A stretch of DNA of 64,000 bases from Omnitrophica bacterium GWA2_41_15 (GTDB lineage: Bacteria > Omnitrophota > Gorgyraeia > Gygaellales > UBA12090): assembly GCA_919902675.1 (NCBI GenBank), contig CAKKRH010000023.1:12000-75999 (forward strand), given 5' to 3'. Below are positions 7,494-49,155 of the stretch, piece after piece. Under the pieces are notes generated by a model that saw only the letters and a program-made list of their open reading frames with translations, ran no database searches and was not told where the DNA came from. Every line of letters starts with the position of its first letter. The stretch's first letter is position 1. Position numbers and translations under genes: made by a program.

Positions 7494-9173
7494 ATGAGAG
7501 TAGCGTTATATACGAGGGTAAGCACAGAGGATCAGGCGCGCGAAGGTTATTCGCTGGAGGTGCAGAGGACATATCTTTTGCAATACGCGAAAAATTTCGG
7601 CTGGGATGTTTTTTGCAGTATGTCGGGCCGGGATGTTTATATGGATGATGGTTATTCCGGCGGCAATATGGACAGACCGGCGTTGCAGAGACTTTTGTTT
7701 GACGCGCGCAATAAGCAGTTTGATCTGATCTTGGTATACAAGCAGGATCGCCTAAGCCGTCGGCTTAAGGATCTGTTGGGATTGCTTGAGGAGATTGATT
7801 CTTTGGGTATTGGCTATAAATCGGCGACCGAGCCATTCGATACCACATCCAGCGCCGGTAAGATGGCGATTCAGATGTTGGGCAGTTGCGCGGAGTTTGA
7901 ACGCAATCGTTTGGTCGAGAGGGTATTCCCGGGCATGGTTGTTGGCGTTAAAAGAGGCCACTGGCAAGGCGCGCGGTATGCGCCGTATGGGTATCGTTAC
8001 AATAAGGAAATCAAGAAGTTGGAAGTCCATCCGGAAGAGGCAAAAATCGTTAAAGAAATTTATGCGATGTACATAAGCGGCACGAGCACTTCGCGGATCG
8101 CAGGGCATTATTACAATCTCGGGATCCCCTCAAGGCAAGGCGGACGGTTTTATAATAAATTCATTTCCAGTATTCTGCAGAGTGAGGTCTATTTAGGGAT
8201 GCTGGTGTGGAATAGACGTCGCTATAACACAAAAGAAAAGACAAAGAACGGCGAAGGCAAAGGTTACAAGTACGTGAATAATGATCCGTCCAAGATCATT
8301 GAAGTACCGAATACTCACGAGCCGATAATTACGCAAAGAGATTTTGATGAGGCCAGAACGCTTCTCAAACGTAACCGCACCAATGGTGTGGTTAGATTCA
8401 GGAATAATGTTTATCAGCTTTCCGGTATTCTGAAATGCAATGAGTGCGGAGGCAATTACCGCGGAATCACCGCGACAGTTAATCATCGCACCAAAATGCG
8501 GCGGCCATGGTATCGTTGTTCTTCCAAAGGCATACCGCATATTAAATGTAGTAATAAATCTGTTACGGCTGACGCGATCAATAAGCAAGTTTGGGATATC
8601 GTAGAAGTCATCCGTCAGAATCTTCATGTGCTTGAGGAACTGGGTGACATGATCAAACTTAACGCATCCGAGCCGGAGCAGTTGTATGTCGAGCAGTTAG
8701 AGGATAAAGACGCGCTTCTTAAGAAGAATATCGAGAAGCAAAAGGGGATCTACGAGTTGTTTTCAGAGGATAAAATTAATCTCGCGCTTTATAAGGATAG
8801 GGCCGAGCTTTTGAGTAATGAGGAGAAAAAACTAAAGCAGGATATCAAGGCGATTCAGCTTAAGATTCTGGATAAGCGTAATTCCGTTAACCTTGTTAAG
8901 GCGACGCAGGATTTCCTTTTAAGGTTACGGAGCACGCCGGATGATCGTCAATTGGATTATCTGGTCAAAACCTTTATGCGGATCATTTTTAAATCGATCC
9001 ACATCCAGAATCAGGAGATCGTGAAGTTCGATCTGAACGAGCCTTGGAAGACTTGCTATGAAGAGGGGATGAAATGGTTGAAAACGAGCGAAAAGACGAC
9101 AATACAGGCGATTCCGGAGGCAAAAGCCCGAAGAAGTTACGTGTGCTTTTGCGCACCTTCGGATGCCAGATGA
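7494..9173 (+). CDS. Large serine recombinase (integrase)
   Basis: Resolvase-type catalytic N-terminus (VALYTRVSTEDQAREGYSLEVQ). Recombinase domain, then a Cys-rich zinc ribbon (CNECGGNY...WYRCSSKGIPHIKC) and a long coiled-coil segment. The last 100 nt overlap miaB in another frame. Confidence 0.9.
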   Translation: MRVALYTRVSTEDQAREGYSLEVQRTYLLQYAKNFGWDVFCSMSGRDVYMDDGYSGGNMDRPALQRLLFDARNKQFDLILVYKQDRLSRRLKDLLGLLEEIDSLGIGYKSATEPFDTTSSAGKMAIQMLGSCAEFERNRLVERVFPGMVVGVKRGHWQGARYAPYGYRYNKEIKKLEVHPEEAKIVKEIYAMYISGTSTSRIAGHYYNLGIPSRQGGRFYNKFISSILQSEVYLGMLVWNRRRYNTKEKTKNGEGKGYKYVNNDPSKIIEVPNTHEPIITQRDFDEARTLLKRNRTNGVVRFRNNVYQLSGILKCNECGGNYRGITATVNHRTKMRRPWYRCSSKGIPHIKCSNKSVTADAINKQVWDIVEVIRQNLHVLEELGDMIKLNASEPEQLYVEQLEDKDALLKKNIEKQKGIYELFSEDKINLALYKDRAELLSNEEKKLKQDIKAIQLKILDKRNSVNLVKATQDFLLRLRSTPDDRQLDYLVKTFMRIIFKSIHIQNQEIVKFDLNEPWKTCYEEGMKWLKTSEKTTIQAIPEAKARRSYVCFCAPSDAR

Positions 9174-10294
9174 ATATCCGAGATTCAGAGGCGATTGTGG
9201 GGATGCTTTTGGAAGGGGGATTTGGAGTAACGGAAGTTGAGGAAAAGGCTGATGCAGTGTTGTTCGTTACCTGTTCGGTGCGCCAGCACGCGGAGGATAA
9301 GGTCTGGTCGGAAATTGGGAGGATAGCTAAGGGGAAGGGGCGATCCTCCGGGATGGAGGGACAGTCCACTTCGGGGACATTCCCTATAATTGGCCTCATT
9401 GGCTGTATGGCGGAAAATTACAAGGAAGGCGCTTTTAAGAGGGCGCCGGGGGTGGATTTGGTGGTGGGGACGAATAATATCGGGGAAATTCCTCAATTGC
9501 TGAAAGAACTTCTTAAAGCCAAACCCAAAACCCAGAGCAGAGGACAAAAATTAGCCGTGGGTAAGGATAAGCGCGATGAATTCGTGTATCAACCCGAATT
9601 CCACCAGGAAGATAACCACAGCCTTGTGGTTATCTCTGAGGGTTGCGATAACTTTTGCTCTTACTGCATCGTGCCGCGGGTGCGGGGGCGCCTGCGCCAT
9701 CGGAAGCCGGAAGATATCTTAAAGGAAATAAAAAGAAATATTGAAAAAGGAGCCGCCTGCGTTACCCTTCTAGGGCAAAACGTAAACGCGTATAAGTATG
9801 ATAAAACGGATTTTATTGATCTACTTAAGCTGGTTAACGCGATTACAGGCCTGGCGGAGTTCGGTTTTGTTACTTCACATCCCAAAGACGCCTCGCTTAA
9901 GCTTTTCCAGGCCATGGCGGATTTGGAAAAATTAAAAAAATATTTACACTTGCCTTTTCAGTCCGCTTCAAATAGAATATTAGAGATAATGCGCCGGGGC
10001 TATAGCCCGGAGCATTATCTGGATTTGGCGCGGGCCTACCGAAAGATTGTGCCACAAGGCGAGCTTTCCACGGATGTAATTGTGGGGTTTCCGGGTGAGA
10101 CTGAGGAGGACTTTCTAAAGACCAAAGAGCTGATGGAGGAGGTCCGGTTTAATAACGCTTACATCTTTAAATACTCTCCACGGCCTAATACCAAGGCTGA
10201 AAAGCTCAAAGACGACGTGCCTAAGGAAGAAAAGGAGAGGCGGCATAAAATTTTGCTTGATCTTCAAAGGCAAATTTCCCGTGAACTAAAATAA
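9074..10294 (+). CDS. miaB: MiaB-like tRNA methylthiotransferase (no TRAM domain visible)
   Basis: UPF0004 N-domain (LRTFGCQMNIRDSEAIVG) and radical-SAM CxxxCxxC (CDNFCSYCIVP). miaA lies two genes downstream. The protein ends right after the radical-SAM core (...ERRHKILLDLQRQISRELK). Confidence 0.85.
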   Translation: MVENERKDDNTGDSGGKSPKKLRVLLRTFGCQMNIRDSEAIVGMLLEGGFGVTEVEEKADAVLFVTCSVRQHAEDKVWSEIGRIAKGKGRSSGMEGQSTSGTFPIIGLIGCMAENYKEGAFKRAPGVDLVVGTNNIGEIPQLLKELLKAKPKTQSRGQKLAVGKDKRDEFVYQPEFHQEDNHSLVVISEGCDNFCSYCIVPRVRGRLRHRKPEDILKEIKRNIEKGAACVTLLGQNVNAYKYDKTDFIDLLKLVNAITGLAEFGFVTSHPKDASLKLFQAMADLEKLKKYLHLPFQSASNRILEIMRRGYSPEHYLDLARAYRKIVPQGELSTDVIVGFPGETEEDFLKTKELMEEVRFNNAYIFKYSPRPNTKAEKLKDDVPKEEKERRHKILLDLQRQISRELK

Positions 10295-45729: not shown

Positions 45730-46073
45730 GCTCCTTGCCGGAAGGGGCATGAATTGAAACCTTGAGAGAGCGTAGATAATTACGCTTTACTATTTTATGA
45801 TAAAATAGTAAACTATACCTTACTATGACAGAAGAGATACTCTAAAAGGAGGGCTGTTATGGAGCTAAAGGATTATGAAATCGCGCGGGTGAGGGTATGA
45901 GCGACAAAGATACCCTTTGTTTATACCGTCACAAGCAGGCGGAAGAAACTCTAATTTCACCTTAAGTGCATTTTTGGCACAATATTCTTTTGACGCAGTA
46001 TAGAGGTTTACAAAAAATTCCTTGCGCCCGGCTGATTTCCGTGGTATAAATCGATATCTAAGAAGACCCACAC

Positions 46074-46158
46074 AGTGCTATGTTAGGAGGGGCAAATCTG
46101 GCACTTTAAAATAATCAAAACCTTCGCCGGCCGTACTTTTGGCTGGCGAAGGTTTTTT
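46074..46158 (+). ncRNA. Unassigned RNA-like element, copy A (5' stem-loop plus intrinsic terminator)
   Basis: agtgc-tatgttaggaggggcaaatctg-gcact, a linker, then ccttcgccggcc-gtactttt-ggctggcgaagg-tttttt (46121-46158). Homologous to 46779-46902. Ends 49 nt before the MNT start codon. Confidence 0.5.
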
Positions 46159-46207
46159 AGTTTCTGAGATTTTATATATCATTATTCTGGAGGAAGGAGA
46201 ATAGTAT

Positions 46208-46516
46208 ATGAGAGAGGCAAAACGCTCAAGTCTTAAAAAGATAAAGGAAATCCTTAATGAACACAAAAATGAATTAAAAGAAAGACATGAAATATCCGAG
46301 ATCGGCATATTTGGCTCTTATGTAAGAGGAGAGCAGAAAAAGAACAGCGATATTGATATTTTGGTTGAATTTGGAAGGCCAGTAGATTTCTTTGAGTATC
46401 TAGAATTGGAAGAGTATCTTTCGAAGCTTCTAAAGGTAAATGTGGATTTAGTGATGAAAAAAGCCCTGAGGCCTATTATAGGAAAGCATATTCTGAGGGA
46501 GGCTGTTTATGTCTAA
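46208..46516 (+). CDS. Nucleotidyltransferase (MNT-type antitoxin of HEPN/MNT modules)
   Basis: GIFGSYVRGEQKKNSDIDILVEF is the minimal NTase GS...DxD motif. 102 aa. Overlaps the downstream DUF86-like reading frame (ATGTCTAA). Confidence 0.85.
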   Translation: MREAKRSSLKKIKEILNEHKNELKERHEISEIGIFGSYVRGEQKKNSDIDILVEFGRPVDFFEYLELEEYLSKLLKVNVDLVMKKALRPIIGKHILREAVYV

Positions 46517-46741
46517 AAAAAGGATTTACATTGACTATGCACAAGACATAATAAACGAGTTAAAGCGCGAGCCAAATATCAGCAAGTCCCATGGAGGAGG
46601 ATCGCCGGGATGAGAGATAAGTTAATACACGAATATTTTGGCGTCGATTATGAAACACTATGGGAAACAATTAAGAAAAGGACCGTAGAAATTAAACCTG
46701 CTATTGAAAAGATGGCAAAAGATTTAAAAAAAGAAAAATAG
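46509..46741 (+). pseudogene. Decayed HEPN (DUF86-type) toxin gene
   Basis: Frame 1 gives MSKKRIYIDYAQDIINELKREPNISKSHGGGSPG* (46509-46613). A second frame, open from 46535, gives ...AKYQQVPWRRIAGMRDKLIHEYFGVDYETLWETIKK...* (to 46741). That is the DUF86 C-terminal half with the Rx4H motif RDKLIH. The central part of a normal DUF86 protein appears to be missing and the halves are out of frame. Confidence 0.65.
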
Positions 46742-46778
46742 CTTTCAATGGTATAAAAGCCTTATAAAGAAAGGTTAT

Positions 46779-46902
46779 AGTGCTATGTTAAGAAGGGGTA
46801 AATCTGGCACTTTCCGCCAAAGGCGGATCCGCCAAGCAATGTGGCGGAAAAACAATCAAAACCTTCGCTGGCCATACTTTTGGCTGGCGGGGGTTTTATT
46901 TT
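46779..46902 (+). ncRNA. Unassigned RNA-like element, copy B (with a 40-nt hairpin-forming insertion)
   Basis: It has the same 5' stem-loop (agtgc...gcact) and terminator (ccttcgctggcc-atactttt-ggctggcggggg-ttttatttt) as copy A. An extra ccgccaaaggcggatccgccaagcaatgtggcggaaaaac lies at 46814-46853. Ends 30 nt before a small ORF. Confidence 0.5.
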
Positions 46903-46932
46903 ATATGAAAGGTAATACTGACAGGTGAAAAC

Positions 46933-47097
46933 ATGGTAAAAAAGCGGGCTAAAAAGATTATTCCATGCCGGCACGATTATAAAAACGCAATTAAAGTTGG
47001 AAATGTTGATTACGCGTGTCCATTATGTAAAGAGCTCTTAGACCCTTTGGAGTGGTTTTTTATGAATAGCTTTGAGTTTGTTGATTTAGTAACATAA
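46933..47097 (+). CDS. Hypothetical small Cys/His-containing protein (not in the ORF track)
   Basis: My own translation: MVKKRAKKIIPCRHDYKNAIKVGNVDYACPLCKELLDPLEWFFMNSFEFVDLVT*. SD aggtga lies 5 nt upstream. Confidence 0.3.
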   Translation: MVKKRAKKIIPCRHDYKNAIKVGNVDYACPLCKELLDPLEWFFMNSFEFVDLVT

Positions 47098-47139
47098 ATA
47101 CCTTGCCTGATTGCTGAGGCTAATTGAGTGTAGTTTAAG

Positions 47140-47421
47140 ATGACAGACTATTTTTGGGCAAAAACAACACAAGATGGCAGGCCGGGAAAATCGGTAGCTG
47201 CGCATAAGCGCGATGTTCAATCCGTAGCCAATATAATGCTGGATGGAAAAGAAAGCCTATTGGTTCGATATGGTTTGAAAAGAGAATTTGTCGCCGCATT
47301 TACCGGTTTGCATGATATAGGCAAAGTTTCGCCTGGTTTTCAATCAAAATGCAAAGAATGGTTAAGGAAAAGCGGTCTTGAGCGAACCGCACGGAACAAT
47401 GCGTGGGATGAACCGGTTTAA
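47140..47421 (+). pseudogene. cas3: cas3 fragment (N-terminal HD domain only), truncated at a CRISPR repeat
   Basis: MTDYFWAKTTQDGRPG...AAHKRDVQSVA...FTGLHDIGKVSPGFQ matches the type I Cas3 HD N-terminus (YWAKS...H..DV...LHDIGK). The ORF ends by reading into repeat-derived sequence gcgtgggatgaaccg (47401-47415). Confidence 0.8.
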
Positions 47422-47537
47422 TAGGATTTCAGAAGGGGCATCCAAGAATGTTCCCCACACGCGTGGGGATGAACCGTTACGATAAATGGCGAAATGCAAA
47501 ACTTAAAGATGTTCCCCGTGAAGCCATCAGATTTGTG
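47401..47537 (+). CRISPR. Remnant type I-E-like CRISPR array (partial repeat, spacer, full repeat, spacer, degenerate repeat)
   Basis: Full 29-nt repeat atgttccccacacgcgtggggatgaaccg at 47448-47476 (compare the E. coli I-E repeat GAGTTCCCCGCGCCAGCGGGGATAAACCG). The 3' part of a repeat lies at 47401-47415. Two 32-nt spacers lie at 47416-47447 and 47477-47508. A degenerate terminal repeat atgttccccgtgaagcc... starts at 47509. Confidence 0.8.
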
Positions 47538-47585
47538 TGGACAAGGTGTGTACAATATGGTATTCTTTATGTGAGAGAAAGGAGG

Positions 47586-47870
47586 ATGAAAATGGCACAT
47601 ACTCTTCAGAAGAATCATCGCATGGATTTGCGCGTTAAGGCTGATAAAAAAGAACTCTTGAATTACGCGGCTTCTCTTCAGAATTTGAGCCTTTCAGCGT
47701 TTGTATTGGCGAGCGCCTTGAAAGAGGCACAGGCGGTCGTAACCGAAAAGGCGCATTTTTCACTACCCGCCAAGGAGTGGAAGTCTTTTTGCGCCAGGCT
47801 TGATCAACCGGCGCAATCAATTCCTAAATTAAAAAAGCTTTTTTCACAACTAAGCGTATTTAATGAGTGA
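47586..47870 (+). CDS. tacA: DUF1778 (TacA-type, RHH) antitoxin
   Basis: ...RMDLRVKADKKELLNYAASLQNLSLSAFVLASALKEAQAVV is a typical DUF1778. SD aaggagg precedes the ATG at 47586. The track ORF's 5' extension (47448-47585) is a translation of the CRISPR remnant. Confidence 0.8.
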   Translation: MKMAHTLQKNHRMDLRVKADKKELLNYAASLQNLSLSAFVLASALKEAQAVVTEKAHFSLPAKEWKSFCARLDQPAQSIPKLKKLFSQLSVFNE

Positions 47871-48630: not shown

Positions 48631-49155
48631 ATGCCGATAACATTTAATCGTTTTGCGGCGATAGATTTTGAGACCGCTGATTACGGGCGCGACAGCGCCT
48701 GCGCGGTATCGGTGGTTATTGTTGAGAAAAGCAAGATCACCAAGAAAACATCCGTCCTTATCCGGCCTCCGAGACGGGATTTTGTTTTTTCGTATCTGCA
48801 TGGAATTACCTGGCCGGATGTGGCCGCGAAACCTGATTTTGGTGAACTCTGGCCGGAAATTAACAGCCTATTAAAGCGGGTAGAATTTATTGCCGCGCAC
48901 AACGCGTCCTTTGACCGCGGGGTCCTGCGTGCCTGCTGCGCCATGGCAGGAGTTAGCGCGCCGGACATTAGGTATCTATGCACCGTGAAACTGGCGCGCC
49001 ATTTGTGGGGGTTGTATCCGACTAAATTACCGGATGTGTCGCGACATCTTGGCATAACGCTTAATCATCATAACGCGCAGTCCGATGCTATGGCATGCGC
49101 CAAAATTGTACTTAAGGCTTCGAAAGAAGAAATTCCGGCAAGCGCGTTTTTATAG
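48631..49155 (+). CDS. DEDDh 3'-5' exonuclease (DnaQ/epsilon-like)
   Basis: Exo I FAAIDFETAD, Exo II AHNASFDRGVL, Exo III HHNAQSDAMACAKI. Confidence 0.8.
   Translation: MPITFNRFAAIDFETADYGRDSACAVSVVIVEKSKITKKTSVLIRPPRRDFVFSYLHGITWPDVAAKPDFGELWPEINSLLKRVEFIAAHNASFDRGVLRACCAMAGVSAPDIRYLCTVKLARHLWGLYPTKLPDVSRHLGITLNHHNAQSDAMACAKIVLKASKEEIPASAFL

Follow-up and report, generated by a model that had tools for sequence, protein, structure and literature searches.

A cas3 HD stub welded to CRISPR repeats: the scar of a lost type I-E CRISPR-Cas locus in an uncultured Omnitrophota bacterium

What kind of locus once stood where, in the genome of an uncultured Omnitrophota bacterium, the beginning of a cas3 gene runs straight into the remains of a CRISPR array, how was that locus lost, and does anything of it still work? 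The question arises at positions 47140-47537 of a 64,000-nucleotide (nt) stretch of contig CAKKRH010000023.1 from Omnitrophica bacterium GWA2_41_15 (the whole stretch is called the window below, and coordinates refer to it unless a locus of another genome is named). Following comparison with related loci, above all the syntenic locus L001 (contig_3895) and the more distant L156 and L158, this segment is well supported as the scar of a lost type I-E CRISPR-Cas locus, in which a stub of the cas3 HD domain has been welded to repeats of the array. From 5' to 3', the remnant consists of the cas3 stub, the 3' 15 nt of a repeat, a 32-nt spacer, a 29-nt repeat, a second 32-nt spacer, and a repeat stump:

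47140..47409, plus strand: 5' remnant of cas3, codons 1-90 (Pfam Cas3_HD, homology to L001, alignment to PDB 3SK9)
47140..47421, plus strand: fusion open reading frame (ORF) of 93 amino acids (aa), made up of 90 cas3 codons and E-P-V from repeat and spacer, with its TAA stop within spacer 1
47401..47409, plus strand: recombination joint, GCGTGGGAT, assignable to cas3 and to the repeat
47401..47415, plus strand: partial repeat, 3' 15 nt, gcgtgggatgaaccg, with the ATGAACCG handle kept and the hairpin lost
47416..47447, plus strand: spacer 1, 32 nt, unique, no protospacer found
47448..47476, plus strand: sole intact type I-E repeat, 29 nt, ATGTTCCCCACACGCGTGGGGATGAACCG, identical to the array repeat of L156 and L158
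47477..47508, plus strand: spacer 2, 32 nt, unique, no significant protospacer
47509..47537, plus strand: terminal repeat stump, in which only ATGTTCCCC matches the repeat; no hairpin

The 93-aa protein starts with MTDYFWAKT, contains AAHKRDV and LHDIGK, and ends with NNAWDEPV; its cas3-derived part is the N-terminal portion of the HD nuclease, running through the LHDIGK motif and NNAWD. A preliminary description, made from the letters of the window without database searches, had taken it for the first roughly 87 residues of a Cas3 HD domain. The assignment held in a profile search (Pfam PF18019 Cas3_HD, E 1.7e-11, 45 bits against a cutoff of 23.1, residues 6-79 aligned to positions 1-88 of 207), while the length had to be corrected to 90 codons, the homology extending to 47409. 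Among solved structures, the closest relative is TTHB187, a Cas3 HD protein (PDB 3SK9, residues 16-90), and both 3SK9 and 4Q2C match the stub around LHDIGK. The stub covers less than half of the HD domain and, with the ORF ending at residue 93, the full set of HD metal-binding motifs is not present. Likewise, the superfamily 2 helicase domains (DEAD/ResIII, Helicase_C, and the Cas3 C-terminal domain), all of which are found in the 872-aa Cas3 of L158, are absent from the stub.

A comparison with 5.8 billion proteins gave only 4 that have words in common with the stub, each of them short. One of them, P0001 (Candidatus Omnitrophota bacterium), is identical and annotated as 'HD domain-containing protein'. 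The closest non-identical homologue, P0002 (70% identical), is the first fragment of the frameshifted cas3 on contig_3895, i.e., L001; P0003, encoded at L149, is another truncated cas3, next to a resolvase gene; and P0004 (123 aa) has no contig record. A stand-alone mini-HD family was considered and rejected, as no conserved short family emerges from these homologues. The N-terminal Cas3_HD stub of L149 (1185-1598, JGI 3300035660) lies on an unrelated high-GC contig, where a serine resolvase gene adjoins it and no repeat is nearby; its homology ends within a few codons of the window breakpoint.

The layout given in the preliminary description, with the stub running into the 3' part of a repeat at 47401-47415, followed by a 32-nt spacer, an intact 29-nt repeat at 47448-47476, and a second 32-nt spacer, was found in full. 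Its degenerate terminal repeat is an element that begins in register at 47509, of which no more than a stump is repeat-derived: the first 9 nt are shared with the repeat (12 nt with a gap), and the sequence after ATGTTCCCC is unrelated. The remnant therefore holds 1 complete repeat, a 15-nt 3' piece, a 9-12-nt 5' stump, and two unique 32-nt spacers. All repeat elements stand in an exact 61-nt register (3' ends at 47415 and 47476, starts at 47448 and 47509); this register fits a scar, as does the orientation, which had been pointed out before. Similar stumps close 3-4 of about 30 examined arrays of this repeat family. Its resemblance to an I-E-like relic in L014 is suggestive, 17 of 2000 shuffles scoring equally well.

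The intact repeat occurs once in the window (0 matches in 100 shuffles), and its hairpin, with a 7-bp stem, a 4-nt loop, and a folding energy of -12.8 kcal/mol, is the one expected for type I-E; folding of the partial 5' copy and of the terminal stump gives no repeat hairpin. With its stem-loop and its AUGAACCG-type 3' handle, this 29-nt repeat is of the kind found beside I-E cas genes. Exactly the same repeat builds 30-repeat arrays in L156 and L158, next to cse1, cse2, cas7, cas5, cas6e, cas1, and cas2 and with spacers of 32 nt (all of them in L156, most in L158). Because identical repeats thus form arrays beside intact I-E operons, the window repeat can be regarded as a bona fide I-E repeat, and a non-CRISPR origin, against which it was checked as the preliminary description had advised, finds no support. 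The repeat pattern is widespread, with arrays in many phyla and at least 120 stretches in a GTDB scan with the repeat; among the matches listed from that scan, neither this genome nor any homology to its flanks was encountered. A search of the remnant against Rfam gave no family at gathering or permissive thresholds.

Where cas3 ends and the array begins can be read to the base. The comparison with a syntenic I-E relative that the preliminary description had called for was made with L001, and it maps the left breakpoint to 47401-47409. The stub is 70% identical to the start of the L001 cas3 at the aa level and 74% at the nt level, and the homology stops exactly at 47409. Both sequences align through AA(C/T)AATGCGTGGGAT (N-N-A-W-D); beyond the joint, L001 reads ACACTTGAATCAGACCAT (T-L-E-S-D-H, as in other Cas3 sequences, starting with ACACTT), and the window, beyond GAT, reads GAACCG, which is the repeat end in the correct 61-nt register. 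The 9 nt of GCGTGGGAT are identical in the L001 cas3, where they encode A-W-D, and the repeat has GCGTGGGGAT, with one G more, which places the crossover inside a 9-nt microhomology between cas3 and repeat. From this joint we infer illegitimate recombination at short homology: cas3 codons 88-90 (GCG TGG GAT) would have been joined by microhomology to GCGTGGGGAT within a CRISPR repeat, and with this event the remainder of cas3, the Cascade genes, cas1, cas2, and the leader would have been lost, along with every spacer except two. At the orthologous codons, the L158 cas3 has TGGGATGAA (W-D-E), an 8-nt match to the repeat. The site appears opportunistic rather than special, since 7-nt matches between the repeat and the cas operon are common (11 in 8.4 kb of L001).

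The relatives show what such a locus looks like with its genes in place. L001, represented also by L002 and L003, comes from the same sample as a contig carrying the deletion allele. On the left of the slot it shares with the window the region at 41.6-44.1 kb, a PIF1-WYL helicase gene (87% nt identity), toxin-antitoxin (TA) genes, and a 54-aa ORF, after which follow, in order, cas3, cse1, cse2, a PF08798 (Cas6e-type) gene, cas7, cas5, cas1, and cas2. Beyond cas2 lie 80 nt of an exonuclease gene (exo), a leader of about 75 nt, and an array of ATGTTCCCCACGCACGTGGGGATGAACCG that counts at least 30 repeats and continues to where the fetched stretch ends. In this operon (L001 9382-17763, likewise L002 and L003), frameshifts break cas3, cse1, cas6e, cas7, and cas5; cse2, cas1, and cas2 look intact, and the array holds at least 30 spacers. 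The frameshifts remain when a majority consensus is formed from one long-read assembly and two short-read ones, and the L001 locus appears to be decaying through point indels. Intact I-E operons are found in more distant genomes, namely in L156/L157 (GCA_964423185.1) and L158 (GCA_041643215.1); L158 has a complete cas3, and in L156 the contig starts partway through the gene. The operons of L156 and L158 contain KilA-N and Bro-N genes, and in L001 a KilA-N fragment (8939-9199) precedes cas3.

Of these cas genes, only the stub remains in the window. The preliminary description had asked whether an intact cas operon lies nearby; a tblastn search of the 64 kb with the translations of the L001 cas operon and the Cas proteins of L156 and L158 matched the stub only. 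L001, L154, L156, and L158 share homologous leaders, of which no counterpart was found in the window. Two genes of the window delimit the slot:

46933..47097, plus strand: 54-aa zinc-ribbon-like ORF at the left edge of the variable slot, part of the flank and not of the relic
48631..49155, plus strand: intact DEDDh (RNase_T) 3'-5' exonuclease gene, exo (Pfam RNase_T, E 4.4e-16)

The 54-aa ORF is conserved upstream of cas3 in L001 and, in L014 and L019, also precedes vapBC and CRISPR relics. We consider it highly probable that 47140-47537 is the inert relic of a type I-E locus that formerly occupied the slot between this ORF and exo. The lost I-E locus suspected in the preliminary description is thus borne out by the Cas3_HD stub, the L156/L158 repeat, the synteny with L001, and a window without leader or other cas genes.

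Some points weigh against this reading. The right-hand boundary of the relic is without a direct comparator in the syntenic L001, whose contig_3895 was covered to 19.7 kb; searches with the exonuclease and with the 65-aa HTH protein brought up no protein encoded on that contig. Of the genome, which measures 2.15 Mb or more, the analysis covered the 64 kb of the window and about 10 kb of flanks, and a second I-E system elsewhere in it is possible. The order cas2-exo-leader-array in relatives conflicts with the order remnant-tacAT-exo in the window. Lastly, the microhomology at the joint is typical of illegitimate recombination, yet it is no proof of it, 7-nt matches being common.

The joint itself is real. 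Arrays often break or mis-join assemblies, and a chimeric contig linking a cas3 fragment to array reads would produce the same picture. However, the 521 nt of 47100-47620, which span the joint, recur with 100% identity to the window on 10 contigs from different samples and assemblers, short- and long-read, with coverage up to 96x; the sameness of the joint across them therefore speaks against an assembly artefact so strongly that this explanation can practically be dismissed. The stub protein is encoded verbatim on 14 contigs, including a 2.15-Mb long-read contig and short-read contigs from well H52 of the Hainich aquifer, among which the coverage of 96x is reached. Furthermore, every contig found to encode TacT, the product of a gene downstream of the remnant, in an exact look-up has the deletion allele, and exact look-ups of the stub protein and TacT returned no pre-deletion allele. 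The deletion allele thus appears to be fixed in the sampled population.

For the age of the loss, the 90 codons are informative. Against L001, their ratio of nonsynonymous to synonymous substitutions (dN/dS) is about 0.15, with dS at about 1.4, near saturation, which indicates that purifying selection acted on cas3 during most of the divergence of the two lineages. Given this low ratio, and since the surviving repeat does not differ from that of intact loci, the loss looks young compared with the separation of the lineages.

Does the remainder still work? Judged from what is known of I-E CRISPR RNA (crRNA) biogenesis, the relic almost certainly has no immune function. The 93-aa product would keep only the first HD motifs and no helicase, and the array would be without a leader or promoter of its own, so that transcripts could arise only by read-through from the cas3 promoter into the downstream tacAT genes. 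The sole promoter-like site (47538-47566) comes after the stump and fits tacA. With one Cas6e hairpin only, spacer 1 would be left without a processed 5' handle and spacer 2 without a 3' hairpin, and tblastn found no homologue of Cas6e or Cascade within the 64 kb. That the remnant is a functional orphan mini-array supplying crRNAs to an I-E system elsewhere in the genome is very unlikely: its full repeat is identical to that of active-looking arrays, and the evidence here covers 64 kb of the genome, but it has no leader, no I-E cas homologue accompanies it in those 64 kb, no protospacer was found, and with one hairpin-forming repeat no spacer lies between two Cas6e sites.

Judged from their orientation, the two surviving spacers are plausibly the oldest of the array. 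The suggestion in the preliminary description that they may record ancient invaders found no support in any of the sequence collections searched. For both spacers, no protospacer was found in IMG/VR (searched with N at every sixth position), in the JGI metagenomes, in the window (up to 10 mismatches), or in 159 fetched loci (up to 9 mismatches), and GenBank phages gave only matches at E ~0.9.

The position of the relic directly upstream of the promoter-like site of tacA raises a further possibility, namely a CreTA-style regulatory mini-array, in which Cascade, guided by degenerate repeats and a spacer, would repress tacAT; moreover, spacer 1 matches the tacA start at 12/15 nt. However, this match lies in the middle of the spacer, the seed proximal to the protospacer-adjacent motif agrees at 1/12 positions, and two-copy matches of that length are at chance level. 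There are no Cascade genes in the window, and TacAT has its own protein antitoxin. CreTA-like regulation, to which we give next to no credence, was rejected for want of a seed match and of Cascade in the window. The ORF 47448-47870, which had been said to translate the remnant in part, does so as a false 5' extension of tacA starting from an ATG in the repeat: the real start is at 47592, giving a protein of 92 aa, and this ATG is preceded by AGGAGG, with the TacA1 profile beginning at residue 10 of the 92-aa version. The proper annotation of the segment is a cas3 pseudogene and a CRISPR relic, neither an 'HD domain-containing protein' nor a 140-aa TacA.

How many events led from an intact locus to this allele is a separate matter, and it depends on exo. 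In the window, exo lies downstream of the remnant and tacAT. Homologues of it are located as follows:

L156 9448-10011: exo homologue, directly after cas2
L158 10001-10591: exo homologue, directly after cas2
L001 17776-17855: first 80 nt of exo, between cas2 and leader
L154 606-1181: exo homologue, followed by the leader and one I-E repeat

In L156, L157, and L158, the homologues (72% identical) come right after cas2 and, in L156 and L158, before the leader, with a 3-nt gap to cas2 in L156 and a 4-nt overlap in L158. Translational coupling to cas2, followed by an I-E leader, is seen in three loci with cas genes. The L001 fragment is 85-87% identical to the window exo, 87% being also the level of the flanking synteny, and is joined to the leader at a GGTAT microhomology. 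A DEDDh gene thus stands between cas2 and the leader in all 4 of the 4 related loci in which the cas2 end or the leader is visible (L001, L154, L156, and L158), and the ancestral order in the clade appears to be cas1-cas2-exo-leader-array.

The preliminary description had derived the scar from the usual gene order by one deletion. As stated, this is not supported: a single deletion from cas3 into the array would have removed exo, and therefore a simple deletion from the order seen in the relatives, with exo between cas2 and leader, does not fit a window in which exo lies downstream. For a single intrachromosomal deletion, the ancestor would have to have been cas3-Cascade-cas1-2-leader-array-(tacAT)-exo, with cas3 codon 90 joined to the third-from-last repeat. 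One novel joint would then explain the left side, orientation and register fit, and arrays whose trailer directly adjoins exo do exist in the clade (type I-C in L018, L151, and L154; I-E-like relics in L014 and L150). On the other hand, all loci seen with I-E cas genes or an I-E leader place exo between cas2 and leader, the L001 fragment beside cas2 is as close to the window exo as the flanking synteny is (87%), and a separate contraction of the array through repeat-repeat recombination is possible. We therefore regard a single deletion as conceivable, though somewhat unlikely. Among the other courses, the ancestor of the window may have had a different order, with the array upstream of exo, or may have carried two exo copies; an additional rearrangement, and hence more than one event, may have taken place; or the locus may have been replaced in one step by donor DNA (array end, tacAT, exo) anchored in exo and closed at the cas3/repeat microhomology. 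The window exo probably served the former adaptation module as its ancillary exonuclease, or else it is a resident gene that the locus flanked. It is worth noting that exo is intact in lineages without cas genes and may be a CRISPR ancillary gene outliving its system. The retention of a cas2-linked DEDDh exonuclease is a hint that ancillary genes can outlive the system they served.

Comparable losses are known from cultured bacteria. In Salmonella enterica, cas deletions that run from a CRISPR1 repeat into cas3 and leave a 5' cas3 remnant have been documented many times (PMC3356390). Structures C-E and deltaA1-A10 (Fabre et al. 2012, PMC3356390) resemble the relic in being of type I-E and in their repeat-to-cas3 deletion, by which the other cas genes were lost and a 5' cas3 remnant was left in its original orientation beside the repeats. 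In contrast, the Salmonella alleles mostly keep their array and have cas3 remnants of about 1.3-2.6 kb, compared to 270 nt of cas3 and two spacers here; unlike them, the relic has its joint inside a repeat at a microhomology and belongs to an uncultured Omnitrophota host. Degraded I-E loci with lone cas3 pseudogenes and eroded arrays have also been described from E. coli, Shigella, and Salmonella (Touchon and Rocha 2010, PMC2886076). The relic shares with these repeated system loss, lone cas3 pseudogenes, and the short relic arrays seen where erosion is old, and the frameshift-ridden cas operon of L001-L003 resembles the Shigella pattern; it differs from them in that there are no insertion sequence elements, decay having proceeded through microhomology joints and frameshifts.

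Repeats and spacers without adjacent cas genes are also a feature of the orphan array CRISPR2 of Enterococcus faecalis. CRISPR2 is a complete array with a leader and can be used in trans, whereas the relic has no leader and one complete repeat. As to the exonuclease, DEDDh exonucleases encoded as separate proteins are widespread as ancillary parts of CRISPR systems, and in some I-E systems DEDDh is fused to Cas2, such trimmer-integrase fusions trimming prespacers (PMC10284694). The related intact loci, with a DEDDh/RNase_T exonuclease gene directly after cas2 and before the leader, are like these modules; unlike the Cas2/DEDDh fusion, the window exo is a separate gene that outlived the cas genes, and its role in adaptation is putative.

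Taken alone, the segment is an ordinary scar, consisting of a pseudogene and an orphan repeat, and the case is a fresh example of a known process of CRISPR loss in a poorly studied phylum, not a new type of system. What it adds is the base-level breakpoint together with an informative set of sister alleles, which provide a nucleotide-resolution record of the loss of CRISPR immunity in an uncultured, slow-growing groundwater phylum. The same locus is being lost by frameshifts in a sister lineage, and in further lineages single-repeat relics of two CRISPR types occupy the same slot.

Cas1 and Cas2 of L001 are 86-92% and 80-82% identical, respectively, to their counterparts in L156 and L158, whereas Cas3, Cas5, Cas6e, and Cas7 are only 25-37% identical and encoded in a different gene order. 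Near-identical Cas1 beside divergent effectors implies an adaptation cassette common to different effector modules, and these sequence comparisons suggest that an adaptation module with exo, leader, and repeat may have been exchanged between two I-E effector variants. Sister lineages have other CRISPR material in the slot upstream of exo, namely genuine I-C arrays, one 32-nt I-C repeat standing alone, and an I-E-like repeat in degenerate form (GTCTTCCCCGCGCGAG(T/C)GGGGG...), and the slot has the look of a hotspot of CRISPR turnover; this material was located upstream of exo at these positions:

L014 2059-2126
L019 379-446
L016 51-607
L018 28-850
L150 ~1690-1720
L151 3-160
L154 125-288

The solitary I-C repeat, GTCGCGCCCCGCGCGGGCGCGCGGATTGAAAC, is the exact divergence point of two haplotypes (L014-L023). 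In L156 (11955-11987), the I-E array ends in a hybrid repeat composed of 12 nt of I-E (ATGTTCCCCACA) and the 3' 21 nt of I-C (TGCGGGTGCGTGGATTGAAAC), which is another repeat-to-repeat illegitimate joint. Breakpoints recur at repeats in the clade, namely at the GGTAT of exo and leader in L001, in the I-E/I-C hybrid of L156, and at the solitary I-C repeat of L014-L023. On a bolder view, the exo slot would be a clade-wide hotspot of CRISPR turnover, in which repeats are preferred recombination sites, the cassette cas1-cas2-exo-leader-repeat is swapped between effector modules, and exo has become indispensable. If this were true, exo, originally a CRISPR ancillary gene, would survive every loss of the system and dictate which deletions are fixed; we consider it unlikely and put it forward as speculation.

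Further observations concern the TA-rich stretch to the left of the slot. A conserved element of about 120 nt is present twice (46036-46163 and 46745-46905), on either side of an MNT-HepT cassette, copy B having a 35-nt insert; the element also occurs in L001 (8433-8585), L014 (1448-1601), and L150 (~1580-1670). Its parts are a -10-like box (TGGTATAAA), a GTGCTATGTTAGGAGGGGCAAATCTGGCAC segment, and a strong terminator hairpin; it has no match in Rfam and looks like a small-RNA gene or a cassette boundary. Between the two copies, the MNT nucleotidyltransferase gene (46208-46516) is intact, and the HepT toxin gene (46509-46741) is a truncated sequence broken into two ORFs, of 34 and 43 aa. This HepT copy is without the first ~40 codons of its 120-aa homologue in L024 and represents another decayed module in this stretch.

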